Shown here: positions 11,584 through 52,447 of the stretch, one piece after another
Layout of the letters: every line of letters starts with the position of its first letter
How positions within the stretch are numbered: the first letter of the stretch is position 1
Source of the DNA: Bacillales bacterium UBA743
GTDB taxonomy: Bacteria > Bacillota_I > Bacilli_A > RFN20 > CAG-826
DNA length: 64,000 nucleotides
Direction: 5' to 3'
NCBI GenBank assembly: GCA_002297365.1
Contig: DBKT01000011.1
Coordinates: 18,650 to 82,649 of the forward strand
Position numbers and translations under genes: made by a program
Notes under the pieces: generated by a model
Databases searched by the model: none
What the model saw: the letters and a program-made list of their open reading frames with translations, nothing else
Told to the model about the DNA's origin: nothing

Positions 11584-11863
11584 TTCCAACAAGCCTCTAA
11601 ATCTTTAAAGATTATCTACTCTTCCGTTTTTTATTTCCATAGAAAAGATTCGTGACAAAGAAGCAAAGAGGCAAACCCTATCTTTTCTTTTAAGAATTCC
11701 TGTGTAAAAAATTAAAAAAACTCTAAAAAGGATTTTCATTTATCGCTATAATGTTATTCCAAGGACGAAAGAAAGCTCCTGTTTAAAACAATGAGACTCA
11801 TTTGAAGCAATTGTGTTTTGATGGAAGCTTGTCCGAATTCATACATTAGGAGGAAAAACAAGT

Positions 11864-13093: not shown

Positions 13094-13105
13094 ATCGTCC
13101 GCTAT

Positions 13106-13140
13106 AGAGGGGGTCTTCTTTAGGGCCCCCTTTCTTTCAA
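13106..13140 (+). terminator. Intra-operon GC hairpin with U-tract between the SBP gene and the ATPase gene
   Basis: AGGGGG-loop-CCCCCT inverted repeat followed by TTTCTTTC. Attenuating terminators after highly expressed SBP genes are common. Confidence 0.45.
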
Positions 13141-13157
13141 AAAAGGAGTTCTTTAAT

Positions 13158-14780: not shown

Positions 14781-14781
14781 T

Positions 14782-16080
14782 ATGAAAGCATTTAAAGAAT
14801 CCATAAAAGTCTTCTTAGCCAAAACAAGTGCTTTCTTCAAGAAAGTCGGCTCTTTTCTGAACAAATACGTTTGGCATTATCTTCGTTATGTTTTTGTTCC
14901 GATTGGAAAATTCTTTTCTTGGCTATTCCATTTCCAAGCGGCCAGATCCATTATGAGCTCGATTATTTGTGTCTTTATTGGCATCTTCGTAGGTTTCATC
15001 GTCATGCTTATTCGTGATCCGGCTAATTGCTTTGCTGGATTGGGCGTTCTTCTGTCTTCTGGTTTCCAGGGGATTTCCGAAGGCGATTATGATGCGATAT
15101 CTCACGTTATAGGCGTCTTAACTCCGATGGTCTTAGCCGGTATATCCATATCCTTCGCTTTCAAACTTGGTTTGTTCAACATCGGCATTACAGGCCAATT
15201 AACCATGGGTGCCTTCCTTTCTTTGATTTTTTCCTTTATGGGAATGCCATGGTACGTTTGTTTATTAATCGGGATGGTTGGAGGCGCCCTTATCGGCTTC
15301 CTTTCCGGTTTCTTGAAAGCCAAATTCAACGTTAACGAAGTCCTTTCTGGCATCATGTTTAACTGGATCGTCTATTACCTTTGCGGTTTGATTGGCGATT
15401 ATTTGCCAAGCGACTGGATTGACTCTTCCAACAAAACCCAGCTTGCCAAAATGTCTCAAAACGGCAGACTTCCGACTCTTCTTTCTGAGAACACCGCTGA
15501 CGGATATATCAATCCGGCCTACTACAACGTGACGGCAGGCATTTTTATTGCGATTATCATTGCTGTTATCATCTGGTTCATTTTGAAATACACCAAATTT
15601 GGTTTCGAATTAAAGCTCTGTGGCTCAAATAAGTTTGCGGCGAAATATGCTGGCATTAATCAAAATTCCAACATCGTTCTTTCTTTGGCGATTTCTGGTG
15701 CAATCGCTGGAATTTGCGGATACATGGTCTTTGCCACCCCTTCTCCTAAAGGGTTCACTTTTGGAGCCTTAGATGGCGTTATGCTGTCCGACGGATTCAA
15801 CGGCATCTCGGTTGCGTTAATCGGCCAAACCGATCCTATCGGATGTATCTTCTCTTCGTTCTTCCTTGCTTATATTAATGAGGGGCAAACGCAAATCGTG
15901 AACGTCTCTATCCTTTATTCCAAATACTATATGGAATTGATTAAGGCAGTTATTATTTACGTTGCTTCATTTAGCGCTTTTATCGCTTATCTTATTAAAA
16001 GCTCTAACGAAAAGAGCAAAGGAAAAATCGACGCTAGTTTCAAAGAACTATATCGTTCCAAAAAGGAGGAAACAGTATGA
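14782..16080 (+). CDS. ABC transporter permease
   Basis: Multiple TM helices. ATG at 14782 has RBS GGGAGAA. The longer track start at 14749 overlaps the previous gene. Confidence 0.85.
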   Translation: MKAFKESIKVFLAKTSAFFKKVGSFLNKYVWHYLRYVFVPIGKFFSWLFHFQAARSIMSSIICVFIGIFVGFIVMLIRDPANCFAGLGVLLSSGFQGISEGDYDAISHVIGVLTPMVLAGISISFAFKLGLFNIGITGQLTMGAFLSLIFSFMGMPWYVCLLIGMVGGALIGFLSGFLKAKFNVNEVLSGIMFNWIVYYLCGLIGDYLPSDWIDSSNKTQLAKMSQNGRLPTLLSENTADGYINPAYYNVTAGIFIAIIIAVIIWFILKYTKFGFELKLCGSNKFAAKYAGINQNSNIVLSLAISGAIAGICGYMVFATPSPKGFTFGALDGVMLSDGFNGISVALIGQTDPIGCIFSSFFLAYINEGQTQIVNVSILYSKYYMELIKAVIIYVASFSAFIAYLIKSSNEKSKGKIDASFKELYRSKKEETV

Positions 16081-17111
16081 ATTTGCTTATTTTAGAAGGG
16101 ATTACCGTCTCTCCTTATGTTTGGGGAACGCTTATCTTCTCTTTCATCGTTTTCGGTGTCGGCTTCACTCTTGGGGCATTTGGCGGGATGTATTCAGAAT
16201 GTTCTGGCATCATCAACATTGCCTTAGATGGTTCTATGTTGTTAGGAGCTTTCTCTGGCATTCTTGTCTGCCAGCAAATCGGCGGCGCTTTAAAAGGAAG
16301 CGAGTTGTTGAATAATTGGGCTTTCGTCAATTTCATTTATGTGATAGGCCTCCTTGTTTGCGTGATTGTCGCTTTTGCTTTCTCCTTCCTGCTCTCTTTC
16401 GTTTCCATCCGTTTGAAAGCGGATCAAACAATCGTAGGCACCGCTTTAAATAGCCTTGTAGCTGCCATTGTTTTGATTGTCAACACGATTCATTTAGGGG
16501 CCGATCTTCCTGAAACCGATGTTTCGATGTTCTATAACGTCATGCTTTATAAGTTTGAGGGTATGGAGTTCTTTAACGGCATGTTCTCCAATTTGAACAT
16601 CACCGTTTTGATTGGAATCGTCCTGATTGTTCTTTTAGCCTTGATCATGAACAAAACAAGATTGGGCTTAAGAATACGCGCATGCGGGGAAAATCCGGCA
16701 GCTGCCGATTCCGTCGGTATCAAAGTCAATAAGATGAGATACATTGGCACCGCTATCGGCTCCGTGTCTGCCGCAATCGGCGGTTATATCATTTTCACTT
16801 GCTTGCGTTTAGGGGAATGGAGCCTCACTTCAGGTGTTTTTGGATATGGTTTCTTGGTGTTGGCAATTGAAATTTTAGGGAACTGGAAAGCGAAGAACAT
16901 TATTTTTGCCGCTTTGTTCTTTGCGTTCTTCACCTCATTTGGGACATTCATGACGACCACCTTCTCTGGCGGAGCGAAAGCCTTCTATAATTCCAAGGCT
17001 TTCTATTGCATGTTGCCCTACTTATTGGCAATCCTATCCCTTGTCTTCTTCTCAAAGAAGAGCCACGCTCCGAAAGCGGAAGGAATTCCTTACGACAAAT
17101 CAGCTCGTTAA
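16077..17111 (+). CDS. ABC transporter permease
   Basis: ATGA overlap with the upstream permease. Polytopic membrane protein. Confidence 0.85.
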   Translation: MNLLILEGITVSPYVWGTLIFSFIVFGVGFTLGAFGGMYSECSGIINIALDGSMLLGAFSGILVCQQIGGALKGSELLNNWAFVNFIYVIGLLVCVIVAFAFSFLLSFVSIRLKADQTIVGTALNSLVAAIVLIVNTIHLGADLPETDVSMFYNVMLYKFEGMEFFNGMFSNLNITVLIGIVLIVLLALIMNKTRLGLRIRACGENPAAADSVGIKVNKMRYIGTAIGSVSAAIGGYIIFTCLRLGEWSLTSGVFGYGFLVLAIEILGNWKAKNIIFAALFFAFFTSFGTFMTTTFSGGAKAFYNSKAFYCMLPYLLAILSLVFFSKKSHAPKAEGIPYDKSAR

Positions 17112-17219
17112 AAAGAACGAACACCTGTATCCATTTTCAAAAGAATTTGCGTTCTCTTAAGGCCAAGGGAACGCTTTTCATATATAATAGAAAAACTTGA
17201 AAAAGAGGATTTCCATATT

Positions 17220-17807
17220 ATGTATCAAGAGCTTCAAAAAGGATGGGTTGAGGTCATCACAGGGCCTATGTTTGCCGGCAAAAGCGAAGAATTGATTCGC
17301 CGCATAAAGACCCTTTCTTACACCAAAATGAGAATTATTGCCTTTAAACCGGCGATCGACGATCGTTACGATAAAACGGCCATTGCTTCTCATGATGGTG
17401 CCAAATATGAGGCCTACGCTATCAAAGAGGCTCATTCCATTCTGGAATTGGTAAAAGAAGACACCCAAGTTGTTGCCATCGATGAAATCCAATTCTTCGA
17501 TATGAGCGTTGTCGGAATCTGCGAAGAATTGGCCGATAGAGGAATCCGGGTCATTGTCGCAGGATTGGACTTGGATTTCAAAGGAGAGCCTTTTGGCCCA
17601 ATGCCAGAGCTCTTAGCAAGGGCTGAATTCGTGACAAAACTTTCCGCCGTCTGCACCGTTTGCGGATGCGCGGCAACAAGAACGCAACGTTTGATTGATG
17701 GAAAACCCGCTGATTTCAACGATCCCATTATTAAGGTTGGGGCAAAAGAAAATTACGAAGCCCGTTGCAGAAAACATCATATCGTTCCCAATAAGCCGAA
17801 ATTCTAG
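17220..17807 (+). CDS. tdk: Thymidine kinase
   Basis: [15 protein letters not shown]-loop and C-terminal zinc ribbon CTVCGCAAT...C. RBS AAAGAGG. Confidence 0.9.
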
Positions 17808-20347: not shown

Positions 20348-20574
20348 AAAGCTCGTCTAGGGCTAGCTCAAAAGCATCCGTTTTAAGATTGGTTTTCTCT
20401 CCATTAACGTACTAGCTCTGACCAAGAAGCTTTCCCTCACTCTGTCATAGACGCCTATAAGCCTATGTTGTCCATGAACATTTTCTCTAGCGCACTAGGA
20501 ATAGAATGTTAGGAATCCTTGCTTTCGAAAAAGCGAGTTCCAAATGAAACAAAAAGGCAATCAAGAAAAAAGAA

Positions 20575-20799
20575 TCAATCGGAAAAAGTAATATCAGCGA
20601 AGGAATAGCAATCATTCCTTTTGTCATAGAGGAGCTCAAAAGGCAATCCTGCTTCAACAAGAAAACAACGGATATCCGAAAGATATCTAGCGAAGGTAAG
20701 GCTATTGATATCGCAATCATATAAAATATCCGCCTTACGAATCTTTTTTTGGGTGTAAAGGCGATAGAAAATAATCAAAACAACTTCACTTTTAGTCAT
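20575..20799 (-). CDS. Hypothetical small protein (74 aa) with no recognisable family
   Basis: ORF with ATG start in an otherwise empty 680-bp gap. Weak RBS. Could be spurious. Confidence 0.2.
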   Translation of the reverse strand: MTKSEVVLIIFYRLYTQKKIRKADILYDCDINSLTFARYLSDIRCFLVEAGLPFELLYDKRNDCYSFADITFSD

Positions 20800-20994
20800 A
20801 GCATTCTCATATGGCTTCCGCCATACGCTCCAGGGGTTTCCAGTTAGTTGTTTTCTCGAGATTCACTAACAAACTTATTTTCTAAGAGATACTCATTTTT
20901 TGATATGAACACGAATATCGTTTTTTAAACAAATCCGATTTTTTAAGTCTTTTTTGTTGAATTTATGGAAAATAAGGCATGCGTGCGCTTGTTT

Positions 20995-21024
20995 TCAAAA
21001 AAAGCCTTGCGTTTTAACAAGGCT
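20995..21024 (-). terminator. Rho-independent terminator ending the dehydratase-like operon
   Basis: On the minus strand, AAGCCTTG-loop-CAAGGCTT followed by T7, immediately after the stop at 21028-21030. Confidence 0.65.
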
Positions 21025-21027
21025 TCA

Positions 21028-21741
21028 TTATTTGTTTCCGTCTAACTCTTTTTGATGCATCTCCCTCATTCCTTCAACGGTGTCGCATATCTCCTTAAAG
21101 GAACAGGTCCTGCAATCCATCTTCAAAGTCTTCAGAACGTGGTCGAAAGCAACCGTAATGCCTTCCGCTTCTTTTTGAAGGGAGAGAAGCTTCTTATAAT
21201 CAAAGGAAGGATCGGTGACAAAGATTTGCTTAACATGGCGCAAGCTCTTCTCTTTTTTGTATTCCTGCAAAAAAGACATGCCGATATCTTTGAACGAGAT
21301 CCCTTTTTGAACGGCTTTTTTTGATACACGTCCCCCTTCTTTTAGGGAATTGGTATTAATTCTAAGCATGAATCCTATGGGAGATACCTTATAACGGGAA
21401 TATTCCAAATTGCGGAACAAACGATAGATGTCTTGATCCTTTTTGCCTTCTTCATCAATCAGAAAGAACGATAAATGAGCAAAAGGCGTTTCTTTTGGAA
21501 GAGAAGAGAGGTCTTTCCCAAGCAAAAGAATTTCATCTTTTTGAACGTAATCGGAATTCGAGGTATATCCCATGAAATAGGAGGAGTCCTTTATTCCGCC
21601 AAGCTCCACTTGTGCATCCTCTGGGAAAATGAACTCTTTTTGTTTTTGCGAAGGAAAAGAACTTTCTAAAGGGAAAGAAATCATCTCTTTCCCCTCAAAA
21701 AGCTTCAAAGCCTCTTTTATTAACGAATCGTATAGATTCAT
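21028..21741 (-). CDS. Hypothetical protein with C-terminal CxxCx6C motif, the last gene of the CooC/dehydratase-like operon
   Basis: 237 aa. No family recognised. C-terminal KMDCRTCSFKEICDT. Tightly packed after the activase gene. Confidence 0.5.
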   Translation of the reverse strand: MNLYDSLIKEALKLFEGKEMISFPLESSFPSQKQKEFIFPEDAQVELGGIKDSSYFMGYTSNSDYVQKDEILLLGKDLSSLPKETPFAHLSFFLIDEEGKKDQDIYRLFRNLEYSRYKVSPIGFMLRINTNSLKEGGRVSKKAVQKGISFKDIGMSFLQEYKKEKSLRHVKQIFVTDPSFDYKKLLSLQKEAEGITVAFDHVLKTLKMDCRTCSFKEICDTVEGMREMHQKELDGNK

Positions 21742-21924
21742 ATCTATTCCAAATGGCGATTCCTTTTTCTCTTATCGTATTTCTTGTTAATCCATTTTTG
21801 GACGTGAACGAGCAACTTCGAGTCCAAGTTAAACATATAGACGATAAACAAAATGATAAAAAGCAAAAGGATAAAGGCAAGAATGGAGCCTAAAACGATT
21901 AGAAGTATAACCCACCATTCCATG

Positions 21925-22728
21925 TTAATTCGCCTCTTTCAACCCTTTTTGACGGGCATATTCCGCAGCCCCTAAAGCACCCATTAGCTGAGGGTCGATC
22001 GGAAGGTCTTTGACTTTAAGATGCAAGACTTTCTCAATGGCTTGTTTCAAACCGGCGTTTTTCGCGCATCCGCCAGTTAAAGTGATAGAATCGGTGGCGC
22101 CCGCTTTTTTCGCCATCACAAAGCAACGTTTGGCAACCGACATCATGATTCCTGCCGCAATATCTTCCATCGGTTTCCCTTCGCCGACAAGAGAAATAAC
22201 CTCAGACTCGCAGAAGACGGTGCACTGCGAAGTGATTGGAATGATATTATTGGCTTTCAGAGAGAGATTGCAGAAATCGTCCAAATCCATTTCAAAGCTT
22301 CTTGCCATCGCCTCAAAGAAACGCCCCGTGCCAGCTGAGCACTTATCATTCATGGCGAAGTTTTGAACCGTGCCGTCTTTCGGATCGATGGCAATGCCTT
22401 TAATATCTTGACCACCGATATCGATAATGGAGGTAACACTTGGATCGGCAACATGCACGCCCATAGCGTGGCATGAGATTTCTGAGATGTTTTCGTTGGC
22501 AAATGGGACTTTGTTTCTTCCATATCCCGTGCCAATCAAATACGTTAAATCACTCGCATCATGAAGTTCGGGAACCTGTTTGATCGTTTCTTCTAGAGCG
22601 ATCTTAGCGCTCTCTACAGCATTGATTTTGCTCTTTAAAGTGGTATGAGCCACCATTCTCCCATTTTCATCTAAAATGACACATTTGGTATATGTCGAAC
22701 CTGCATCACAGCCACCAAAATATTTCAT
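21925..22728 (-). CDS. BadF/BadG/BcrA/BcrD-type ATPase, a CoA-substrate-specific enzyme activase (HgdC / DCCP reductase-like)
   Basis: MKYFGGCDAGSTYTKCVIL N-terminus and actin-fold ATPase blocks. ATG at 22728 has AAGGAA 7 nt upstream. The track start at 22761 is upstream of it. Confidence 0.8.
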   Translation of the reverse strand: MKYFGGCDAGSTYTKCVILDENGRMVAHTTLKSKINAVESAKIALEETIKQVPELHDASDLTYLIGTGYGRNKVPFANENISEISCHAMGVHVADPSVTSIIDIGGQDIKGIAIDPKDGTVQNFAMNDKCSAGTGRFFEAMARSFEMDLDDFCNLSLKANNIIPITSQCTVFCESEVISLVGEGKPMEDIAAGIMMSVAKRCFVMAKKAGATDSITLTGGCAKNAGLKQAIEKVLHLKVKDLPIDPQLMGALGAAEYARQKGLKEAN

Positions 22729-22741
22729 ATTCATTTCCTTT

Positions 22742-24295
22742 CTACCAGCGTTGAGCATCATCGAAATCCACTAAGGATGGATCCAACGGCTCTTCTCTCA
22801 GAACCGTTTTCATGTAACGATTCACGTCTTCGCGCATGTCTTTTCTTGTCGCTTTTGTCGGATTCATCAAAGCATGATACACCCAAACAATATGGATGCC
22901 TCTCTTTCTTCCTTCTTCTTCCAAAAGCCCGTGATATCCAGCCATGGATTTGCAGCCGATATGCTCATACATGATGACCATATCCGCATGATACTCTTCG
23001 CAATATTGCCAAAGTTGTTCCACGCCAACTTCGTATCCGCCATTGGAATGGTTACGCATAATCATGTTCATGTTGTATTCGCCTAAATCCAATAAAGCTT
23101 GCTCATGATCCTCATAATTGATTGGTTTTGTTAAGGTGAAAGAAAGCATATCACAAAGGCAAACGATTCCCCAGCAATTGGAAAGCCATTGGTTGAAGGC
23201 GGTGTAATATTGGGCATGGACGCCCCAAACAAGGGCTCTATGCCTAACTTCCTTGCAAGGCAAACGTTTTTCTTTGTAGCCTTTCTTTGCCAAGTCCGTA
23301 ATCTCTTGGTCGAATTTCAAGAAAGATGGGTCACGCCCGGAAATGACCATATATTCCGCATCGCGGTAAAGCATGACGTTGTTATTGACCACTTGCGGAT
23401 AATCGGTTTTGTTCATCTCCATCCATTCTTGGAATAAGGCGTTTTGAGCATTATAGGTCTTCATGTTTCTGGCAAAGGCATCCCAATCCCACTTCTCACC
23501 GGTATGTTTTTCAATAAAATGAATGGCTTCCACGATCTGATCGCGGGAATAAGCCAAAACCGATTTCTGTTGATGACGCATAGGGGCAGCCATTGTGAAA
23601 GAAGGCAAATCATCATGCCTGTCCTCGATTTGGTTGCCCATCAAAGAACCATCGCAAGTGGTGTTGCAGTGCACCGCGCAAACGCCGCAAATTGGATAAT
23701 CTTCATCGATGGCGCAGCCAAGTTCGGCGCAAGGCATAGGGCAAACATCGCCCGGGATTTGAAATTCCTCTGCCGTTTCGATGTAATGGAGGACTCCATC
23801 TTGAGCAATGGTTGATCCCGTATAAATGGCAGGAACCTCTTTCGAAAGAAATTTCAAGTTAGGGAAGCCGGTGGCGATAACCATCATTCCGTTTTCGTCC
23901 ATGATGACAAGTTTCTTGTTTAATTCATCGTATTTCCCGTGTTTGTTTCCAATACGCTTATCGCATTTGAAAAGAGTATCCATGGTTTGGGTAAGATGCT
24001 CCACGATGGAATCGTATTCGATATGGGCAATGCGAAGTTGTTCTCCGCGCACCCCTTCAACATGGCGGTCGATGTAGTCGAACGCAGCCAAATAATTGCC
24101 AAACCAACGGTAAGTGAACATCGCCTTTATGGTGGTTGGCTTCATGATGAACTTCGACATAACCAAAAGATTATGAAGCCATCTTGAAAAATCGTACATC
24201 GTGTCTTTGAAGCCTCTCCATTCACGACGTTTGGCTGTTTTTTTGCCGGGCTTATTCAGCTTTCCGAGATTTTGATCTCCCTTACGTTTTTCCAT
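22742..24295 (-). CDS. Alpha-like subunit of the 2-hydroxyacyl-CoA dehydratase / benzoyl-CoA reductase (HgdA/BcrC-like) family
   Basis: 517 aa. Family-typical length and conserved Cys content. Start overlaps the stop of the beta-like gene. Confidence 0.65.
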   Translation of the reverse strand: MEKRKGDQNLGKLNKPGKKTAKRREWRGFKDTMYDFSRWLHNLLVMSKFIMKPTTIKAMFTYRWFGNYLAAFDYIDRHVEGVRGEQLRIAHIEYDSIVEHLTQTMDTLFKCDKRIGNKHGKYDELNKKLVIMDENGMMVIATGFPNLKFLSKEVPAIYTGSTIAQDGVLHYIETAEEFQIPGDVCPMPCAELGCAIDEDYPICGVCAVHCNTTCDGSLMGNQIEDRHDDLPSFTMAAPMRHQQKSVLAYSRDQIVEAIHFIEKHTGEKWDWDAFARNMKTYNAQNALFQEWMEMNKTDYPQVVNNNVMLYRDAEYMVISGRDPSFLKFDQEITDLAKKGYKEKRLPCKEVRHRALVWGVHAQYYTAFNQWLSNCWGIVCLCDMLSFTLTKPINYEDHEQALLDLGEYNMNMIMRNHSNGGYEVGVEQLWQYCEEYHADMVIMYEHIGCKSMAGYHGLLEEEGRKRGIHIVWVYHALMNPTKATRKDMREDVNRYMKTVLREEPLDPSLVDFDDAQRW

Positions 24296-25491
24296 TATTC
24301 GCCTTCCCTTTCTTCTTGGAGTTTCTTGATTTCAACCGCTTCAATAAAAGCTTGGATGCGGGTTCTTAATTGGCCAGATTGGCCAACATTATAAGGCCTA
24401 TCGATTGAAAGGGTCTTATAGCCGTATTGGTGTTGCATCACCGCATTCATGAAGGCTCTGCCATATCCCCAATAATCGCAGAACTTGATTTGCTCGATGA
24501 TAAGGCCATCAACATGGTATTCTTTCCCGATTTTATCAACATAGGCATGCCTCTCATTCACTTTTTCGGTGGTAAGGAAACGAGGGCATTGTCCGGATTC
24601 CATATAGTAACGGCAAACTTGAGTCAAAGCATCTTCGTCTTTGCTAAGCTCGATGACTTGTCTTCCAGGAAGAGAGCCGAAACAATAACGGTCTGCGACT
24701 ACGATAAGGCCGCATTCCTCTGCTAGTTTGATTAATTGTGGATCATCGATTTCCGAGCCGACGATAGCAACGCGGCAACGATATGTCCCCTTCTTTTCGG
24801 GAACGCGGTTTTTCACTTCTTCGAGGGTTTCCTCCAATTTAGCGATGAGTTTGTCTTTCGGGCAGCAATAGGTCGCTAAGCAAAGAACGGCAAACTCATA
24901 TCCGGTAATGCGAGGGGTTTCATCTTTTCTGAAATCGCCAATTTCCGTAATGAGTTTGGAAATCTTGTTTTGCTCTTCAACAGCTTTACGGATCGCTTCG
25001 TCAGAGATATCGATTCCGAAATTCTCGTGCAATGGCTTTAAAACGTGTTCTTGCATTTGAAGAACGTAATGCTTCAAAGTGCTCGCATCGCTTTTCATGG
25101 GAACATCGACATAGGAAGCGAAGAAATGGGGTTTCGTGCAGCAATTTAAATGTTCGATGTTTTCGACGCAGCGATTCATCATGGCGCAGGCTTCAGGGGC
25201 AATGATGGCATCTAAGAAGTTGAAGCCTCCTTCTAACGCTCTTTCAAGAATTGCTCTGCAAGCTTCGCAGAAAATCGGGGAAAGGTAGTAGCTCCCCATT
25301 TCGATGCTTCCCGTACGCGGGGCTCTTAAACGTACGGAGAAAATGCCAGGAAGATTTAATAAAGGCTCAGGAATTTGATAGCAAACGTGACCAATGGCCA
25401 TCCTTCCTTCCCCTTGGGCTTCTCCGATTAACTCGTTATAAGAATTCTCAAGAAGCTTCTCGAAATAATACAAATGTTTCAGGTCTCTCAT
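24295..25491 (-). CDS. Beta-like subunit of the 2-hydroxyacyl-CoA dehydratase (HgdB-like, HGD-D) family
   Basis: ~400 aa. ATG at 25491 has AAGGAG 8 nt upstream and is preferred over the TTG at 25512. Overlaps the end of the CooC-like gene. Confidence 0.65.
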   Translation of the reverse strand: MRDLKHLYYFEKLLENSYNELIGEAQGEGRMAIGHVCYQIPEPLLNLPGIFSVRLRAPRTGSIEMGSYYLSPIFCEACRAILERALEGGFNFLDAIIAPEACAMMNRCVENIEHLNCCTKPHFFASYVDVPMKSDASTLKHYVLQMQEHVLKPLHENFGIDISDEAIRKAVEEQNKISKLITEIGDFRKDETPRITGYEFAVLCLATYCCPKDKLIAKLEETLEEVKNRVPEKKGTYRCRVAIVGSEIDDPQLIKLAEECGLIVVADRYCFGSLPGRQVIELSKDEDALTQVCRYYMESGQCPRFLTTEKVNERHAYVDKIGKEYHVDGLIIEQIKFCDYWGYGRAFMNAVMQHQYGYKTLSIDRPYNVGQSGQLRTRIQAFIEAVEIKKLQEEREGE

Positions 25492-25508
25492 CGATGTCTC
25501 CTTATATA

Positions 25509-26276
25509 TCAAAGAATATGTATTTTCTTCAACGCCTCTGATGTCCCTTTCACAATAGGCGCATCATCAGAAAGGAAGAAGACATTTTCTCCATCCATGT
25601 CAAAACGGGCTAATTCTTCGTCCATTGGGATCTTAGCTAAAACTGGAATTCCTCCGACGTCTAGCTCTTCCTTCATCGCTAAAGAGGAAAGGCGGTTCGC
25701 AATCACGCCGATTTCTTTGTACATAACGAGCTCATCCGCCACTTTTTTGATGGTCTTTACGACTTGTCTTCCTTTTTGGCTTTGATCGGTGACAAGCAAT
25801 AGGTGAGTCACTTTTTCCATGACGCGACGGTTAATTTGCTCAATTCCCGCTTCGCCATCGATCACGACATAATCGTAATGAGAAGAAATAGCCGAAATGA
25901 CTTCCTTGAGATAAGTATTAATCTTGCAATAACAACCGCTTGCTTCTGGGCGGCCGATAGCCATAAAAGAGAAACCGTTTTGATTCACGATGGCCTCTTC
26001 GATGGAATACTCGGCATTGCCAAGAACTTCCACAACGGCATTTTTGCCATCTTCTGAAGCGGCAATCGCTTCTTTTCTCACATCATCGATAGTCTTTTTC
26101 GTCTCAATTCCCAAAGCCGTAGAAAGCCCGACCGCTGGATCGGCATCGATGGCTAAGATTTTCTTATCCGGATAGTTCTTAGCCAAGAGCCTGACAATGC
26201 ATGCGGCAATAGACGTTTTGCCTACTCCGCCCTTACCTGCTACGGCAATGATACGCGGGGATATTTCCTTATTCAT
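25509..26276 (-). CDS. CooC/AcsF-like MinD-superfamily P-loop ATPase with CxC metal-binding motif
   Basis: Deviant Walker A AVAGKGGVGKTS. CooC-type SGCYCK motif. ATG at 26276 with AAGGAAAGG RBS. The track start at 26282 is TTG. Confidence 0.7.
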   Translation of the reverse strand: MNKEISPRIIAVAGKGGVGKTSIAACIVRLLAKNYPDKKILAIDADPAVGLSTALGIETKKTIDDVRKEAIAASEDGKNAVVEVLGNAEYSIEEAIVNQNGFSFMAIGRPEASGCYCKINTYLKEVISAISSHYDYVVIDGEAGIEQINRRVMEKVTHLLLVTDQSQKGRQVVKTIKKVADELVMYKEIGVIANRLSSLAMKEELDVGGIPVLAKIPMDEELARFDMDGENVFFLSDDAPIVKGTSEALKKIHIL

Positions 26277-26618
26277 AAACAAAGCCCTTTCCTTACTATA
26301 TGTATGTTTATCTTTTAAGATATCTATACCATTTTACCAATTTTCCTTATTTTTGAAAGAAAAACCGCATAGAATCGAAAGTTTGTAATCTTTAACTAAT
26401 ATAAAAAACAATAACGAAAAAAGCTTAATGAAATTAATAGATAATCCCACAGCCCTATTAATATGGTCTTCTATCCCAGCTATTTACTTTCTGGTGTAAG
26501 AAAGAGAACATCGTGGAAACCAACTATTTACTTCTAGAAAAAGAGCGATGTCTAAAGACTCGAATGGAAGAAAACGCTGTTTATTCGCGGTTTAACATTC
26601 ATTCTTCGAAGGACGGGT

Positions 26619-29042
26619 TCATTTGAACTTAGACATATTGTCTAGACGTCCTTTAAGCTCATCGATTTCGCCCTCAAATGTTCTGATTTGTGAATCCAGT
26701 CTTGTTACGATGCCCTTACTTATGAAAAAGATGAGAAGAAAATTTATTGCTGCCACAACGAAAGGCGCCCACCAAATAAAATGGGGCACGTTGGTGATAT
26801 TTCCAAAGCATAACAAAAAAACTATTGGAGGTGCAAGAAGGGGCGAAACCGAAAACACCATAAACAGCCGTTTTGCGACGCTTTCTGTGTGTTCCTTGCG
26901 TCGTTCCAGTTGCCCTAATTCGTTTGATTTTTGAGAAAGATCATCTTCAACACCCGAAAAAATTTCGTTTTTAGTCATCTCAAGTTTGCTTTCCTCTTCT
27001 TGGGAAGGAATACCATTTGCCTTGCCTTCTGATAGGCAAAAAGGACAGGCTATTTGCTTTTTTTCATATACGGTTCCGCAACGAGTGCAGTAAACCAAAT
27101 CATCATACTTTGCAATATTAACTGTGTCGCACCCTTGCCGATGAGCCAACTCACCAAAGCTTTGCGCACTTCGATAACTCTTCTCGATGCCTATGCCTTT
27201 TTCGTAGTTTTCAGCAAGGATGGCTGAAGCTTCTCCACAGCCCAAATCGGAAGCCTTCCGAAAATAAAGATTGGCCGCTTGTGGATCTTTGAATATGCCA
27301 CGCCCTTTTAGGTAGCAAATGCCAGTCCAGTAATTGGCCGCTTTGTATCCAAGCTTCGCCGCATCAAAAAATGCCTTCAGTTTGAGGGATGCTTCCATGG
27401 GTTTTGGACCCTCGCGAAGAAGCCGTTTTTGATTCAATTCCCCTGCATCTATTTTCTTTTGCAAGTAGGCTCTAAGATAGAACTCCCCCGCTAGCGTCAA
27501 AGAGGGCGATGTGCCGATTCCGATGTCGTAACATAGAGCCAGGTTCCATAAGGCGTTTGAATGCCCCAAAGAGTTTTCTTTGAGCTTTTCGAAAACATCC
27601 GGAATTTCCTTCAGCTCTTCTGGGGTAAGACGTTGGTTAATGAATTCTAAACTAGATTGTATGGTCTTTTGGGAAGACGTTCCCAGCAATACGGTTTTGT
27701 TATCCGAATCCAAAGACGAGGTGACGCACAGCTTTGTAATGAAGTTTTTAGGCCTTTCGTTTTTCGTTTTTTCAGAAGCTGCCGATAAAACGACATTTTG
27801 GAATCCGCTTGTCTCTGTTTCTGACTGTTTTGCATTTGATTTCGTTATCTTCTTTGATTCCGTCTCTTGGCTTCGACCAACGTCCTGGGAAGCAACACCG
27901 TAATGCTTTCTCGTCAAATATATAAGCAAAGCCACAATATGTTTGCAGGGGCTATGCCACCGCAAATAAGAAGGGCAGGAGCATCGGCAGTCGATTATTT
28001 GAGACTTATCGTTCGAAAGAAGAAGCTCGGTATCATAGACGTTTCCGTTTGATCCATGGACTTTAACAGCAAACCACGTCCCAGCGTCGTTAAACCGCAA
28101 ATCAAATAACCTCCCTTCGTTAACGTACTTCATCGCTTTTAGCGCCGTAACGTCCTTTTGGGATTCGTCCTTATGAGTCATGTATTGATAAATTTGCTCT
28201 GCGGAAAAGGAAGGAAAGAAAGAATCGGCGGTCTTAGAGTCCGTAACAGGTTTGGCCGCTCCCTGGTTCGGAATTGATCCATTTAGGCTCTTTAAAGCTT
28301 TTTTCGCTTGCGGGAAACCTAATTCAGCTGCTTCTTTGATAAGTGCTGCCCCTTCTTCTTTTTGGCCTCCGTTATACCTAAGAACGCCCAGTTGATACTT
28401 ACCCTCCGCACTTCCGCCATTCGCTGCTGTTTGAAAGAGGCTCAAAGCCTTTTTCATGTCCGGTTCCACGCCATATCCACGCAGAAAGCAATCCCCTAAA
28501 GCGCTTGCCGCTTCCATGAACCCGGCGGCAAAAGATAAAGTGAAGAAGGCCGCCGCCATTACGTCGTCTTCCTTCACCCCAGTTCCAGTCAAAAGGCAAA
28601 GACCGGCTTGGTAAGTGGCAATAGGATAGCCTTTTAAGGCGGCCTGGCTATAGGCCTCGTAGGTTGGAGTGAAGGGCACTATGTTTATCGCTTTTTCGTC
28701 AGGATCTTTTAGAATGATTTTCCCTTCATCCAATTGGGCTAGGGTCCAAGCCATTAGATAATGAGCATTGGCCAAATCGGGATCTTGTTTTGTTCCAATA
28801 CCGCAATCATAGCAAACGGCCAAATTCCAAAGCCCATTGGGATATCCCTGCGCTTTTTTCTCTAGAATTTGAAATAAGCCGGGTTCTTTTTTTAAAAGGT
28901 CGGACGATAGTTTTTTGCTGAGACATTCCTCTTGGGCGGGCGCCACTTCGGAAAAACCAATCGTCATCATGTATTTTCCATTAAGCCCATCGGTAACGGA
29001 TGGTGACCTAGATGGCCAAAGATTAATCACCGCTTTTTTCAT
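26619..29042 (-). CDS. Multidomain protein with two Sel1-repeat blocks, a SWIM zinc finger, a zinc ribbon, TM helices and a C-terminal coiled coil
   Basis: Sel1 blocks GLWNLAVCYDCGIGTKQD and ALWNLALCYDIGIGT. SWIM CRCSCPSYLRWHSPCKH. Zinc ribbon CTRCGTVY...CPFC. Hydrophobic LLAPPIVFLLCF...VVAAINFLLIFFI. Confidence 0.6.
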   Translation of the reverse strand: MKKAVINLWPSRSPSVTDGLNGKYMMTIGFSEVAPAQEECLSKKLSSDLLKKEPGLFQILEKKAQGYPNGLWNLAVCYDCGIGTKQDPDLANAHYLMAWTLAQLDEGKIILKDPDEKAINIVPFTPTYEAYSQAALKGYPIATYQAGLCLLTGTGVKEDDVMAAAFFTLSFAAGFMEAASALGDCFLRGYGVEPDMKKALSLFQTAANGGSAEGKYQLGVLRYNGGQKEEGAALIKEAAELGFPQAKKALKSLNGSIPNQGAAKPVTDSKTADSFFPSFSAEQIYQYMTHKDESQKDVTALKAMKYVNEGRLFDLRFNDAGTWFAVKVHGSNGNVYDTELLLSNDKSQIIDCRCSCPSYLRWHSPCKHIVALLIYLTRKHYGVASQDVGRSQETESKKITKSNAKQSETETSGFQNVVLSAASEKTKNERPKNFITKLCVTSSLDSDNKTVLLGTSSQKTIQSSLEFINQRLTPEELKEIPDVFEKLKENSLGHSNALWNLALCYDIGIGTSPSLTLAGEFYLRAYLQKKIDAGELNQKRLLREGPKPMEASLKLKAFFDAAKLGYKAANYWTGICYLKGRGIFKDPQAANLYFRKASDLGCGEASAILAENYEKGIGIEKSYRSAQSFGELAHRQGCDTVNIAKYDDLVYCTRCGTVYEKKQIACPFCLSEGKANGIPSQEEESKLEMTKNEIFSGVEDDLSQKSNELGQLERRKEHTESVAKRLFMVFSVSPLLAPPIVFLLCFGNITNVPHFIWWAPFVVAAINFLLIFFISKGIVTRLDSQIRTFEGEIDELKGRLDNMSKFK

Positions 29043-29416: not shown

Positions 29417-30433
29417 TTAACGTTGGACACGGCCAGAGCCATCTCCATTGGCAAGTTTCTTCACCTCATCGACAGAGACGCAGTTATAGTCTCCTTCGAT
29501 GGAATGTTTCAAAGCGCTTGCGGCAATGGCGAATTCAATCGCATCTTGCGGATGATAATGATTCATCAAAGCGTAAATCATTCCGCCAGCAAAAGAATCT
29601 CCCCCGCCAACGCGGTCGATGATACGGAGGTTATATTCTCTAGATAAATAGGCGTTCCCATCGTAAAGCATGCCGCACCACTTGTTATCGCTTGCGGAGA
29701 TGGAAGTTCTCATCGTGATGGCGACGTATTTGAAGCCGAATTTGTCTTTAAGCTGTTTTGCAACCGAGACATACCCCTCTTTACTAAGTTTTCCAGAGAC
29801 GGTATCGGTGGCTTCGGCTTTGATGCCAAAGACATCGTTCGCATCGTCTTCATTTCCGAAAAGGACATCGACATATTGCATGAATTCGCTCATGATTTCA
29901 CGAGCCTTTTCTTTGCTCCAAAGCTTGTTGCGGTAGTTTAAATCGCAAGAAACGGTGACATGGTGTTTTTTGCAAGCAATCAAAGCTTGACGGGTGATTT
30001 CAACGACATTATCGCCCAAAGCTGGGGTGATTCCCGAGAAATGGAACCAGCTGACGCCCTCTAAAATCTTATCCCAGTCGTATTCTTCTGGCTTAGAAAG
30101 GGCAAATGCGCTATAGGCGCGGTCATAAATGACTTTGGAAGGTCTTTGGGAGGCGCCTTTCTCTAAGAAATAGATTCCTAAACGGTCTCCGCCTCTAATG
30201 ATCTTAGAGGTATCCACGCCATATCTTCTTAAAGAATTTAAAGCGGCTTGTCCGATTTCGTGGGACGGAAGTTTGCTAACGAATGCGGCATCAATTCCAT
30301 AATTGGCAAGGGATACGGCAACGTTTGCCTCTCCTCCTCCAAAAGTGGATTCCAAATGGTCGCATTCGACAAAACGCAGATAATTGTCTGGTTGGAGACG
30401 AAGCATGATTTCGCCTAAAGTAACTGCTTTCAT
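29417..30433 (-). CDS. kdgK: 2-dehydro-3-deoxygluconokinase (PfkB family)
   Basis: KdgK-like N-terminus MKAVTLGEIMLRL. PfkB motifs. ATG at 30433 with AAAGGA RBS. The track start at 30523 is an upstream extension overlapping eda. Confidence 0.85.
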   Translation of the reverse strand: MKAVTLGEIMLRLQPDNYLRFVECDHLESTFGGGEANVAVSLANYGIDAAFVSKLPSHEIGQAALNSLRRYGVDTSKIIRGGDRLGIYFLEKGASQRPSKVIYDRAYSAFALSKPEEYDWDKILEGVSWFHFSGITPALGDNVVEITRQALIACKKHHVTVSCDLNYRNKLWSKEKAREIMSEFMQYVDVLFGNEDDANDVFGIKAEATDTVSGKLSKEGYVSVAKQLKDKFGFKYVAITMRTSISASDNKWCGMLYDGNAYLSREYNLRIIDRVGGGDSFAGGMIYALMNHYHPQDAIEFAIAASALKHSIEGDYNCVSVDEVKKLANGDGSGRVQR

Positions 30434-30435
30434 AT

Positions 30436-31050
30436 TTATTTTCCTTTCACAAGCATAACGGCTTTCTTTGTATTTTCTTGGATTTCCTCGAAACTTCCTT
30501 TCATCATGAAGCTTCCACCGCAAGCGATGATATGAGGATAGGCAAGGTATTCCAGAATGTTTTCTTCATTGACTCCGCCTGTCGGCATGAAAGTCACTTG
30601 TGGGAATGGGCCATTTAAGGCTTTGATGGTTTTTAAGCCACCGTAATTCGATGCGGGGAAGAACTTAATCACATCAATGCCAAGCTCTAACGCTTTCATG
30701 ATCTCGGTTGGAGTGACGCATCCAGGAAGGTAAACGACTTTGTGGGCTTTGCAAACATTCGCGACTTCTTCGCTAAGCCCTGGGGAAACAATGAATTTCA
30801 CGCCAAGAGAAATAGCCTCCTCAGCTTGTTTGGCGTTAATGACCGTTCCTGCGCCAATTAAAGCCTCAGGGAATTTTTCGATGGCCAATTTGATCGCGTC
30901 TTTCGCACAAGCGGTGCGATAGGTGATTTCCGCAACAGGAAGACCGCCTTTGATAAGGGCTTCCATCGTTGGAATGGCGTCTTCGATTTTATGGATTGCC
31001 ACCACAGGCACCAAGCGATAGTGACGAATCTCTTCTAAAACATTTCCCAT
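30436..31050 (-). CDS. eda: 2-dehydro-3-deoxyphosphogluconate (KDPG) aldolase
   Basis: YRLVPVVAIHKIEDAIP...GGL.VAEIT typical Eda. RBS AGGAGA. Confidence 0.85.
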   Translation of the reverse strand: MGNVLEEIRHYRLVPVVAIHKIEDAIPTMEALIKGGLPVAEITYRTACAKDAIKLAIEKFPEALIGAGTVINAKQAEEAISLGVKFIVSPGLSEEVANVCKAHKVVYLPGCVTPTEIMKALELGIDVIKFFPASNYGGLKTIKALNGPFPQVTFMPTGGVNEENILEYLAYPHIIACGGSFMMKGSFEEIQENTKKAVMLVKGK

Positions 31051-31053
31051 ACA

Positions 31054-32382
31054 TTATTCTCCTAATAGTTTTTTGATATTTCCGTAAGAGATGTTGTAAG
31101 CAAGTTTCTTAGCGTCTTCTAAGAGATATTCCCCAGCATCGACTTTCTCCCCTAAGAAAGAAGAAAGAATTCTGCGGAAGAAATCGAATCTAGAATAAGA
31201 TGAGAAGGAGCGGGAATCGGTCAACATGCCAAGATTCGTTCCGATTGCGGCGTATTCCGAAACGATTTCAAGATTTCTCCTAACACCCAAGAGGGTATCA
31301 TTAAACCACCAGGCTGCACCCACGATAACATTGCGGAAAGCGCCAGAGATGCAAGCAACCTCGCGTAACATCTCAGGATTCAAAGAATAAAGGATGATGG
31401 TTGGTCTTTCTTCATCGCTAAGTTGATCCAAGAAATGGATGAGATCTTCAACATTAGCCCCTTCACCGATGACATCAAACCCCATGTCCACGCCAAGTTT
31501 CTTATACATTGGGGTGTTGATATTGCGAATGACAGAGAAATGAATTTGCATCAAGAGGCCTCTCTTTTTGTATTCTTTCATCAAGAAGACAAGAAGGTAG
31601 CCAAACAAGGAGTCTTTTTCTTCGCTAGTTAACGAGTCTCTCTTAAGATAAAGCGATTTTGCTTGCTCATAAGTCGCATACGCCTTCGGAAAAGAGCGGA
31701 AACCATGGTCAGTGATTTTGCAGCCCTTAGACTTAAAGAAATCAAGTCTCTCCTCTAGCGCTTTTTGGAAAGAATCCAGATCATTTAACGGATAGCCGAC
31801 AACTTTGCTGAGCTCTTCGATATATTTGGAATCGAAGTTATAAAGCTTATCTGGGCGGAAGGTCGGAGTGACATCCGTCTCATTTATCTTGCCGTGGTCT
31901 TTTAAATCTTCGGTTGGATCGTTGGTGGTTGCCACGAATTGAACGCGGAAGAGCTTCAAAAGTTTCTGAACGGAAAGCTCTTGAAGCTTCTTGTTTGCCT
32001 CGGCATAGATCTCCTCGGCGCTGTCCTTATTAAGTGGCTTATCGATGCCAAAAACCTGCTTAAGCTCGAAATGGGTCCAATAATAAAGAGGGTTGCCGAA
32101 TAATTGAGGCAGGATTTCCGCATAGTGAAGGAACTTCTCATGGAAAGAGGCATTGCCGGTGATGTAATATTCATCCACCCCGCACATTCTCATGGCTCTC
32201 CACTTGTAATGGTCGCCAGCAAGCCAAAGCTCACCAATGTCAGTGAATTTCTTATCGGCTTTGATGGCAGCCTGATCCAAATGGCAATGATAGTCGATAA
32301 TCGGCAAATCTTTAATGGACTCGTAGATCTTTTTGCTGGATTTTCCAGAAAGAAGAACGTTTTCCCCGAAAAATGAATTCAT
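31054..32382 (-). CDS. uxaC: Glucuronate isomerase
   Basis: IIDYHCHLD... UxaC signature near the N-terminus. 442 aa. Confidence 0.9.
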   Translation of the reverse strand: MNSFFGENVLLSGKSSKKIYESIKDLPIIDYHCHLDQAAIKADKKFTDIGELWLAGDHYKWRAMRMCGVDEYYITGNASFHEKFLHYAEILPQLFGNPLYYWTHFELKQVFGIDKPLNKDSAEEIYAEANKKLQELSVQKLLKLFRVQFVATTNDPTEDLKDHGKINETDVTPTFRPDKLYNFDSKYIEELSKVVGYPLNDLDSFQKALEERLDFFKSKGCKITDHGFRSFPKAYATYEQAKSLYLKRDSLTSEEKDSLFGYLLVFLMKEYKKRGLLMQIHFSVIRNINTPMYKKLGVDMGFDVIGEGANVEDLIHFLDQLSDEERPTIILYSLNPEMLREVACISGAFRNVIVGAAWWFNDTLLGVRRNLEIVSEYAAIGTNLGMLTDSRSFSSYSRFDFFRRILSSFLGEKVDAGEYLLEDAKKLAYNISYGNIKKLLGE

Positions 32383-32385
32383 AAA

Positions 32386-33237
32386 TCAAACTCCACTATA
32401 AGCGCTGAAGCCGCCATCAATTGGAAGAACGACACCAGTGATAAAGGAAGCGGCCTCGCTGTTAGAAAGGAAAAGCACGGCACCTAAAAGTTCATCTGGG
32501 GTGCCGAATCTTCCCATTGGGGTATTATTCAAAATCTTATGGGTTCTTTCGGTTGGAGTGCCATCCGGATTCCAAAGCAAAGCCTTATTTTGGGCGGTAG
32601 AGAAGAAGCCAGGAGCAATGGCGTTCACACGGATTCCGCTCTTAGCGAAATGGGTGGCAAGCCATTTGGTGAAATTGCTGACACCGGCTTTGGCTGCAGA
32701 ATAAGCAGGAATCTTGGTTAATGGGGTGAAAGCATTCATGGAAGAGATGTTTAAGATGGAGCATCCTTCTTTGCCAAGCATATCATTGGCGAACACTTGA
32801 GTAGGAAGCAAGGTACCAAGGATATTGAGATTGAAAACAAATTGGAATCCTTCGGTCTTTAAATCGAAAAAGGAGATGGTAGAAGAATCCACTTTTGGCT
32901 CATAGAACTCTTGGGAGGTAGATGCTTTTGGAGAATTTCCGCCGGCGCCATTGATAAGAATGTCGCATTTGCCGAAATCGGCAAGGATCGCTTGATGCGC
33001 TTTCTCAAGAGAGTCTTTATCTAGAACGTTGGCCTCATAGCCTTTTGCGATGCCACCAAGCGCACGAATTTCTTCGGCTTTGGCTTCAGCTGCAGAATAA
33101 TGCAAATCCAAAAGAGCCACTTTCGCATGGCAAAGAGCAAAAGCTCTCGCCATTTCGGAGCAAAGGACTCCTCCCGCTCCCGTAATCACAACAACTTTGT
33201 TGGAATAATCGACGAACAAAGGTAATTTTTTATCCAT
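32386..33237 (-). CDS. uxuB: SDR-family oxidoreductase, a probable short-chain-type D-mannonate oxidoreductase
   Basis: Rossmann VVVITGAGGVLC. The catalytic YxxxK motif is present as PAYSAAKAG. Its position between uxaC and uxuA supplies the one step missing from the pathway. Confidence 0.6.
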   Translation of the reverse strand: MDKKLPLFVDYSNKVVVITGAGGVLCSEMARAFALCHAKVALLDLHYSAAEAKAEEIRALGGIAKGYEANVLDKDSLEKAHQAILADFGKCDILINGAGGNSPKASTSQEFYEPKVDSSTISFFDLKTEGFQFVFNLNILGTLLPTQVFANDMLGKEGCSILNISSMNAFTPLTKIPAYSAAKAGVSNFTKWLATHFAKSGIRVNAIAPGFFSTAQNKALLWNPDGTPTERTHKILNNTPMGRFGTPDELLGAVLFLSNSEAASFITGVVLPIDGGFSAYSGV

Positions 33238-33257
33238 AATTTATTCAAGCCTTTCTT

Positions 33258-35318: not shown

Positions 35319-35330
35319 TAATAATCATTT

Positions 35331-35373
35331 TTGCAATAAGTGAGAACCATTATTGCAATTTTAAGCGCTTACA
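35331..35373. promoter_or_regulatory. TTGCAATAA-N10-TTATTGCAA inverted repeat (35331-35358) followed by the cre-like site TTTAAGCGCTTACA (35360-35373), upstream of the transporter gene
   Basis: The cre consensus TGWAANCGNTNWCA is matched at 13 of 14 positions. The TTGCAAT motif recurs at 34352, 39256 and 39278. Confidence 0.45.
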
Positions 35374-35444
35374 TTGGTCTTTAAAATTTATAAGTTCATG
35401 AGGTTCATCCTCAATACGATTGTTAGGAATGGAGGTTTTCTTCT

Positions 35445-50357: not shown

Positions 50358-50376
50358 GTTTATTTCCTTTTCTTAA

Positions 50377-52434: not shown

Positions 52435-52447
52435 TGTTTCTCCTTAA

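Follow-up and report, generated by a model that had tools for sequence, protein, structure and literature searches.

The superfamily of benzoyl-CoA reductases (BCRs), 2-hydroxyacyl-CoA dehydratases and double-cubane-cluster proteins (DCCPs) is responsible for chemistry that is among the most reducing in biology: Birch-type ring reduction, ketyl-radical dehydration and ether-lipid formation. In class I BCRs (BzdNO/MbdON with BzdPQ/MbdPQ; PDB 8S02, 9G87, 9GAI), two HGD-D paralogues form a heterodimer in which BzdN holds an [8Fe-9S] double cubane through six cysteines and BzdO/MbdO holds a [4Fe-4S] cluster with an open iron through three cysteines (Cys95, Cys128 and Cys380 in BzdO), and electrons are injected by an ATP-dependent, BcrAD-type injector composed of two distinct ATPase subunits. 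The dehydratases HadBC with HadI and HgdAB with HgdC (PDB 3O3M, 1HUX, 4EHT) are also alpha-beta heterodimers of HGD-D proteins, served by a homodimeric activase encoded by one gene. DCCP and its reductase DCCP-R (Carboxydothermus CHY_0487; PDB 6ENO, 7YYL) combine a homodimer of one protein, with a seven-Cys motif and six cysteines that hold an [8Fe-9S] double cubane, with a homodimeric activase as the reductase. The anaerobic plasmalogen synthase PlsA/PlsR and the glycerol ester reductase Ger, which are large fusion proteins containing DUF2229 (PF09989) and two activase domains, belong to the same superfamily, have no CoA-transferase and act on membrane lipids, not on coenzyme A (CoA) esters (PMC13159169). 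Here, we describe a six-gene operon in a 64,000-nucleotide stretch of DNA from Bacillales bacterium UBA743 (contig DBKT01000011.1; hereafter, the window), whose products we propose, with a probability of roughly 0.6, to form one ATP-driven, low-potential radical iron–sulfur (Fe-S) enzyme of this superfamily together with a dedicated accessory maturation unit; the part of this proposal that concerns the core enzyme is, taken by itself, very probably correct.

The module occupies positions 21028–26276 of the minus strand, or 21028–26282 if the TTG start of the first gene, cooC, is used instead of its ATG start. It encodes, in order, a CooC-type ATPase, a beta and an alpha subunit of the HGD-D family, an activase, a small membrane peptide and a truncated acetyl-CoA synthase (ACS), which we call acsL or mini-ACS. 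The original prediction, which was made from the DNA sequence, contained five minus-strand open reading frames (ORFs); all five are found where it had placed them, and a sixth gene, a 59-codon ORF, had been missed. The overlaps of 1–21 nt that it reported between the genes arise from the longest ORFs, with TTG starts, and not from the ATG starts. If the ATG starts called in relatives are used instead, which give proteins of 255, 398 and 267 aa, neighboring genes overlap by 1 nt at most and are no more than 17 nt apart, so that they are still tightly packed.

The beta subunit (24295–25491, minus strand, 398 aa; ATG at 25491, longest ORF from TTG at 25512) matches Pfam HGD-D (PF06050) with E 4e-83 and 280 bits against a cutoff of 28.4, and its best PDB match is BzdN (8s02_B, E 5e-23), followed by DCCP and HadC. 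Its six invariant cysteines, C37, C75, C102, C270, C302 and C338, align one-to-one with cysteines of BzdN and DCCP, and their spacing fits the published DCCP motif except for the non-ligand second Cys of the latter. With these six cysteines, three per domain, beta is predicted to be an [8Fe-9S] double-cubane-binding subunit of the BzdN/DCCP type.

The alpha subunit (22742–24295, minus strand, 517 aa) was assigned by Pfam, by cysteine alignment and by an AlphaFold2 (AF2) model. It also belongs to HGD-D (E 2e-38, 133 bits, cutoff 28.4), as the original prediction had proposed for both subunits, but is strongly divergent in sequence, the best PDB match being MbdO with E 5e-6. The AF2 model (pLDDT 84.7) matches best the catalytic subunits BzdO, HadB and MbdO (E 1e-13 to 1e-12, TM 0.72–0.77) and more poorly the N/beta-type subunits and DCCP; all top 20 fold matches belong to the HGD-D superfamily with its fold of two Rossmann-like domains. 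HadB is matched about as well as BzdO, with a sequence identity of about 15%. Three invariant cysteines, C185, C214 and C448, align with cysteines of MbdO and DCCP and correspond to the three-Cys [4Fe-4S] site of BzdO; further invariant residues are D133-E134-N135, D215, S217, C374, D382 and H474. The N-terminal helical extension of about 125 aa is conserved and Arg-rich. From the cysteines and the fold, we predict that alpha is the catalytic subunit, of the BzdO/HadB type, with a three-Cys [4Fe-4S] cluster whose fourth iron is open.

The fourth gene (21925–22728, minus strand, 267 aa; ATG at 22728, longest ORF from 22761) encodes an ATP-dependent electron-transfer activase ("archerase"). It matches Pfam BcrAD_BadFG with E 7e-54 and NCBIfam CoA_E_activ (TIGR00241) with 218 bits at a cutoff of 125, and its PDB matches are MbdQ (2.5e-60), HgdC (1hux, 1.4e-56) and HadI (1.3e-54), so that the BadF/BcrAD/HgdC-type activase of the original prediction can be described as HgdC/MbdQ-like. 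C130 and C169 are invariant, which fits the two cysteines per monomer that hold a bridging [4Fe-4S] cluster in activases of the ASKHA fold. Because there is a single gene, the activase is presumably a homodimer.

The predicted core thus has the architecture of BzdNO, a double-cubane relay with a three-Cys catalytic subunit, served by a homodimeric activase in the style of dehydratases and DCCP. All curated equivalog models (HadB/C, BzdN/O, BcrB/C and double_cubane) score far below their cutoffs, and therefore the enzyme is not an orthologue of any characterized one. Membership in class I BCRs was rejected on the single activase gene, on the scores of the bzdN and bzdO models (87.5 bits against a cutoff of 454 and 16.5 against 449) and on the lack of pathway genes. 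Alpha differs from BzdO in its identity of only about 15%, in its 125-aa N-terminal extension and in an invariant Ser in place of BzdO His131; no ferredoxin or aromatic-pathway genes accompany the module, and class I BCRs, in turn, have no counterpart of the CooC-type ATPase, the mini-ACS or the membrane peptide.

The proposal of an ATP-driven low-potential enzyme related to DCCP fits these data, but its more specific form, a DCCP-type reductase, holds only in part: beta carries the six double-cubane cysteines, whereas the predicted enzyme is a BzdNO-like heterodimer and not a homodimer. The NCBIfam model double_cubane (NF040772) is the best model for beta, with 131 bits against a cutoff of 350. 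Membership in DCCPs was rejected on this score, on the presence of two different HGD-D genes, one of which encodes a separate three-Cys catalytic subunit, and on the absence from beta of the seventh, non-ligand cysteine, which is the second in the motif. PlsA/Ger membership was rejected as well, since PF09989 is not matched by alpha or beta at E ≤ 0.01 and the activase is a separate, single-domain protein; these enzymes are nevertheless a precedent for a non-CoA, membrane-associated substrate.

The first gene of the operon encodes a CooC-type P-loop ATPase of 255 aa (25509–26276, minus strand; ATG at 26276, longest ORF from TTG at 26282). The protein matches Pfam CbiA, AAA_31 and ArsA_ATPase, has the deviant Walker A motif GKGGVGKT of SIMIBI proteins, and finds CooC1 (3kje) as the best PDB match, with a full-length alignment at E 5e-17 and the next-best family at 3e-8. 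The CooC CxC motif noticed originally as SGCYCK is present (as EASGCYCK); its cysteines, C115 and C117, are invariant in 25 homologues and align on the Ni-binding CxC of CooC1. Judged by these alignments, the ATPase is a genuine CooC relative. It belongs to a CooC-like clade of at least 7,800 clusters at E ≤ 1e-10, which some sources label "CO dehydrogenase maturation factor".

To our knowledge, nickel insertion, into either the C- or the A-cluster, is the function of every CooC-family protein characterized so far. CooC/AcsF with ACS is an established chaperone–client pair, and the CxC sites of CooC-type proteins also bind Zn. The module and the window contain no gene for a CO dehydrogenase (CODH) or a full-length ACS. 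By analogy with the characterized proteins, CooC may act in this module as a cluster-assembly or nickel-insertion factor.

The last gene, acsL (21028–21741, minus strand, 237 aa), encodes the protein that the original prediction could not assign. Pfam, alignment and the AF2 fold identify it as a truncated ACS composed of the A2 (middle) domain and a C-terminal Cys segment. It matches Pfam CdhC with 27.2 bits at a gathering cutoff of 24 and aligns to ACS residues of about 297–479, which form the A2 domain; of the PDB fold matches of its AF2 model (pLDDT 86) at E ≤ 1e-4, 23 of 23 are ACS, and the next best match has E 0.23. The CRTCSFKEIC motif described earlier is present and lies in an invariant C-terminal group, C210-x2-C213-x5-C219, D220, E223, G224 and H229, in a segment that is of low confidence in the model. 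With only 18 residues beyond the third Cys, the 237-residue protein has the A2 homology but not the ligands of the ACS A-cluster, four cubane cysteines and Cys-Gly-Cys: the Cys-Gly-Cys nickel site, the fourth cubane Cys, the A1 domain and the full A3 domain are absent.

The ACS cubane motif is CxxCx8Cx9C. By position, the C-terminal segment of acsL presumably stands where ACS begins this motif after A2. Both the phmmer and the profile alignments break off at residues 181–191 of acsL and give no residue-level alignment of CxxCx5C to the cubane motif, so that the homology of the two is argued from position and from the ACS literature. A profile search of 1.84 billion representatives returned 743 relatives of acsL, 174 of them at E ≤ 1e-30, each of the best 150 being a stand-alone protein with a length of about 230–300 aa; acsL is therefore an established family and not a pseudogene. 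By sequence and model, it is best described as a stand-alone ACS fragment with the A2 (CoA-binding) domain and an invariant CxxCx5C. Acetyl-CoA binds to ACS mainly at the surface of the A2 domain (bioRxiv 10.1101/2024.08.05.606187). The RVSK stretch of A2 is kept in acsL, and the Trp that stacks on the CoA adenine in ACS aligns with an Arg.

The assignment of acsL sharpens the link to CooC, because CooC/AcsF and ACS form a chaperone–client pair: here, an ATPase that aligns with CooC1 over its full length, including the CxC, has an ACS-derived partner in the same operon, which mirrors that pair. The difference is that there is no CODH or ACS in the module and that acsL retains A2 and three cysteines only, without A1 and most of A3.

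The gene missed originally encodes a small membrane peptide of 59 aa, MEWWVILLIVLGSILAFILLLFIILFIVYMFNLDSKLLVHVQKWINKKYDKRKRNRHLE, at 21744–21923 of the minus strand, as read directly from the sequence. The 183 nt that seemed to be empty between the activase (stop at 21925) and the 237-aa protein (start at 21741) are taken up by this gene, which lies 1 nt and 2 nt from its neighbors. In the peptide, one long hydrophobic helix is followed by the conserved segment YFxNLDxKLL and then by a basic tail; it has no match in Pfam. It is called as a gene in close relatives, with an identity of 62–92%, and the YFxNLDxKLL motif was found at 66 of 90 loci, in every case immediately preceding acsL or immediately following an alpha paralogue. 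Judging by its hydrophobic helix, the peptide may tether alpha, or the complex, to the membrane.

Two loci, L039 (862–9696) and L047 (742–9735), have two alpha paralogues of 526 and 597 aa, each followed by its own YFxNLDxK peptide, together with one beta, one CooC, one activase and one acsL. This suggests that alpha and the small peptide are an exchangeable specificity pair. The doubling of the peptide at these loci, like its conservation, is in favor of the proposed tether.

Conservation of the set was examined from two anchors. The acsL-anchored scan, with one genome per species, gave at least 500 confirmed matches in uncultured Bacilli, Christensenellales, Lachnospiraceae (including the cultured Pseudobutyrivibrio sp. 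49), Oscillospiraceae and others. When the six window proteins were searched with tblastn, 34 of the 53 acsL-anchored loci with enough upstream flank contained the complete set, and the 18 loci without it all belong to one divergent acsL subfamily. The alpha-anchored metagenome scan gave 538 matches and added Clostridium gasigenes, Clostridium sp., Anaerovoracaceae, a spirochaete metagenome-assembled genome (MAG) and environmental contigs; among the 48 loci flanked on each side by 2.4 kb or more, all six genes were present in the same order in 38, acsL in 46 and cooC in 43. The recurrence of the same gene set at 34/53 and 38/48 loci, which answers the question of neighborhood conservation raised by the original prediction, indicates that the six genes form one real operon and are not together by chance. 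Cultured strains that contain the module are Pseudobutyrivibrio sp. 49, Clostridium gasigenes and Lachnospiraceae bacterium XBB1006.

When neighboring ORFs were clustered all-against-all (90 and 86 loci), only the six module genes recurred; flanking genes differ by lineage, and MatE, ABC transporters and similar genes are lineage-specific. About 170 related loci show no recurrent CoA-transferase, CoA-ligase or acyl-CoA gene, and there is none in the 64-kb window either, in line with the absence of a CoA-transferase noted at the outset. Gene order varies while the set is kept (at locus L010 it is small peptide, acsL, alpha), and cooC and acsL stay with the enzyme genes across phyla despite such changes.

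The components differ in their rate of change. In close relatives, for example in Christensenellales, identity is 86% for alpha, 79% for the activase, 78% for beta, 74% for CooC, 62% for the peptide and 51% for acsL; among close relatives in general, acsL (48–72%) is the least conserved component, compared with 86–95% for alpha. For this reason, acsL seems to behave as a helper rather than as part of the catalytic core. At greater distance (Lachnospiraceae and Oscillospiraceae), alpha falls to 36–50%, while the activase remains at 75–83% and CooC at 57–69%, and alpha is probably the specificity-determining subunit, with the activase and CooC as generic machinery. Alpha (22742–24295) is 86–95% identical to its counterparts at loci L006, L012 and L023, between uncultured Bacilli and Christensenellales and within unrelated flanks; this identity between classes of Bacillota suggests recent horizontal transfer, unusually strong constraint, or both.

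The divergent acsL subfamily (246 aa, 35–39% identity, 18 loci) occurs in Oscillospiraceae/Clostridiales, for example at L036 (5591–9741) and L056 (5618–9741). It mostly follows SPFH/Band-7, Zn-ribbon and TPM-domain genes, the small peptide and HGD-D genes not being adjacent; at L040 and L042, HGD-D genes lie 1–9 kb away.

On a branch of about 55% identity, comprising Clostridium gasigenes, Clostridium sp., the spirochaete MAG and environmental contigs, a flavoprotein of 890–916 aa with Fer4, Fer4_20 and Pyr_redox_2 domains adjoins acsL in five of six sampled loci (L091, 4995–18611; L093, 808–16151; L094, 13444–16482; L095, 13865–16552; L096, 13391–16066). At L096, it lies on the acsL strand with a 23-nt gap, and it is often accompanied by HypA and/or HypB. 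Homologues of IsrA, a putative isoprene reductase, are mostly flanked by HypA, HypB, TetR and DUF5692 and are suspected to need nickel (PMC10134865). In its domains and its HypA, HypB, TetR and DUF5692 neighbors, the sole grounds for the comparison, the flavoprotein resembles the IsrA family; it may donate electrons to the module or be its partner in a pathway. As a universal partner of the module it was rejected, being confined to this one branch and absent from the window and the gut lineages.

The following mechanism is proposed for the module, the electron path having been solved in homologous structures and applied here by inference. The activase homodimer, with its bridging [4Fe-4S] cluster, would take an electron from ferredoxin or flavodoxin, bind ATP, dock on beta and inject the electron upon hydrolysis into the [8Fe-9S] double cubane held by the six invariant cysteines. 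The electron would then pass from beta to the [4Fe-4S] cluster of alpha (C185, C214, C448), whose open fourth iron would face a pocket lined by invariant acidic and aromatic residues, and a substrate in this pocket would be reduced by one electron. The outcome may be elimination, as in dehydratases with catalytic ATP, or net reduction, as in BCR and DCCP with stoichiometric ATP. The 59-aa peptide would hold alpha, and hence the complex, at the membrane. The CooC-type ATPase would dimerize through its CxC, bridged by a metal. Together with the mini-ACS, which would serve as a scaffold or adaptor, it would mature or repair the enzyme by supplying it with a metal ion or an Fe-S unit; the two would act together like AcsF/CooC and ACS, the pair from which they would be derived. 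Nothing in this scheme would require a substrate made by a dedicated CoA-transferase.

Several observations weigh against this scheme, above all against its accessory part. When produced heterologously in Escherichia coli (MC4100 for BzdNO), DCCP and BzdNO assemble their clusters without a dedicated chaperone, so that a double-cubane maturase is not obviously needed. The mini-ACS could equally be a structural or redox subunit. The divergent Oscillospiraceae acsL subfamily, with its 18 loci, is not adjacent to enzyme genes, and one Lachnospiraceae locus has no adjacent cooC. The metal centers are predicted from conserved cysteines, the proposed tethering has hydrophobicity as its single basis, and nothing in the window or among the conserved neighbors points to the substrate.

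Other explanations of the gene set differ mainly in what they make of CooC and acsL. The module would be ordinary if it encoded a 2-hydroxyacyl-CoA dehydratase, an orthologue of Hgd, Had, Lcd or Fld, with its CoA-transferase elsewhere and with cooC and acsL as unrelated neighbors; the Pfam family and the activase type, which are common to dehydratases, agree with this. We consider it highly improbable: beta has six cluster cysteines, compared with the three that bind one [4Fe-4S] in HadC, the NCBIfam equivalog models score far below their cutoffs (87 of 700 bits for HadC and 29 of 750 for HadB), alpha is as distant from HadB as stated above, and cooC and acsL are kept with the enzyme genes across phyla and through changes of order. 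On the six-Cys beta, these scores and the lack of a CoA-transferase in the window and among recurring neighbors, a canonical dehydratase was rejected; a 2-hydroxyacid dehydrogenase is also missing from the module. That lack of a CoA-transferase is accounted for differently if the mini-ACS is a substrate-handling subunit whose A2 domain presents a CoA or phosphopantetheine thioester to alpha, in place of a CoA-transferase, with CooC as a regulatory or assembly ATPase. The contacts of acetyl-CoA in ACS, made mainly with A2 residues (bioRxiv 10.1101/2024.08.05.606187), the conserved RVSK stretch and the Arg-rich N-terminal extension of alpha, which would suit a phosphorylated substrate tail, are in favor of this explanation. 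It is nonetheless quite improbable, given that the adenine-stacking Trp of ACS is Arg in acsL, that acsL evolves faster than the catalytic core, that BzdO and HadB bind CoA by themselves and that without a Ni site no thioester-forming chemistry is possible.

The third explanation makes the module a nickel enzyme, in which CooC loads Ni into a site of the mini-ACS, alone, as a dimer or at the interface with alpha, with C210, C213 and C219 and with D220, E223 and H229 as candidate ligands, to create a new catalytic Ni-Fe-S center. The nickel insertion by the characterized CooC family, CooC1 as the best PDB match and the invariant CxC point in this direction, as do the stretch retained in acsL that starts the ACS cubane motif, whose second Cys, by inferred position, bridges the proximal Ni, the invariant Cys, Asp, Glu and His cluster at the acsL C-terminus, and the branch in which the module stands beside HypA, HypB and IsrA-like reductases suspected of being nickel-dependent. 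On the other side, the Cys-Gly-Cys Ni ligands of ACS are absent and acsL ends 18 residues past the third Cys, CooC-type sites bind Zn too, there is no Ni transporter in the window or among the conserved neighbors, and HypA and HypB belong to the neighboring IsrA-like gene and not to the module. On balance, we find this explanation possible but rather unlikely. The enzyme as a whole would then represent a class not known before, a nickel-dependent, ATP-driven radical enzyme at the membrane, with a BCR-like alpha-beta core and possibly a lipophilic or non-CoA substrate, a picture that we regard as doubtful.

As to the transcription of the operon, an intrinsic-terminator-like element lies directly after the acsL stop codon (20995–21025, minus strand), an 8-bp G+C-rich hairpin at 21002–21025 with the arms AAGCCTTG and CAAGGCTT followed by a T-run on the minus strand; the terminator predicted after the last gene is thus present. 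The terminator scan returned 11 sites, with 6 ± 2 expected, and between the genes there was none except the terminal one. Since no internal coding-strand terminator stood out above chance and synteny is conserved, a separate transcription unit for cooC was rejected and cooC is assigned to the same unit as the enzyme genes. The 336-nt leader upstream of cooC (26283–26618, minus strand) is the presumed promoter region. Rfam gave no credible riboswitch or leader RNA in 20500–27000 at E ≤ 1, and in seven related loci the region preceding the module gave no match either. Within the first 80 nt of the acsL coding region is an inverted repeat, imperfect and about 20 bp long (21660–21704, minus strand), which was picked up by the terminator scan and by a sub-threshold Rfam miRNA match and may be no more than coding sequence.

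The gene directly upstream of the operon, on its strand and at a distance of 336 nt (26619–29042), encodes 807 aa with Sel1 repeats and a SWIM zinc finger; it is also present in the near-identical contig L001 and is not conserved with the module elsewhere. A hexuronate-utilization cluster (29417–34301 and 34533–39169) encodes a KDG kinase (PfkB), a KDPG aldolase-like protein, UxaC, a short-chain dehydrogenase/reductase and UxuA, and is adjoined by an AraC regulator, a major facilitator superfamily sugar transporter and a GH2 glycosidase. A gene of the choloylglycine (bile-salt) hydrolase family at 47118–48158 (Pfam CBAH, E 5e-94) is consistent with a gut origin. Three large tandem genes at 48666–54067, one with BspA-type leucine-rich repeats (PF13306, E 8e-77) and one with a Big_2 domain, probably encode cell-surface proteins. 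The original prediction had called the operon striking in a salvage-oriented genome; a nucleoside-salvage block at 10942–17807, with a deoxynucleoside kinase, a Bmp-family lipoprotein with its ABC transporter and a thymidine kinase, bears out the salvage orientation, but the module is not peculiar to this genome, being widespread in gut Bacillota.

In the literature searched, no paper describes this gene set, and no curated family model names it; an enzyme of the HGD-D superfamily with an accessory set of CooC, a truncated ACS and a membrane peptide is, within that literature, new. Its matches, in hundreds of species, and its CooC-like protein clusters, which number in the thousands, come mostly from gut and rumen; it represents an overlooked branch of the superfamily. 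In such genomes, the labels "CO dehydrogenase maturation factor" and "CdhC" are no sign of a metabolism of CO or acetyl-CoA. If the nickel explanation were true, this would be the first nickel-dependent member of the archerase-driven superfamily, and one common in human-gut and rumen Bacillota. More generally, the presence of a CooC chaperone and an ACS fragment in organisms that lack the Wood–Ljungdahl pathway would change the view of the roles of both families, and the finding may point to a new metallocofactor or a new route of cluster assembly.

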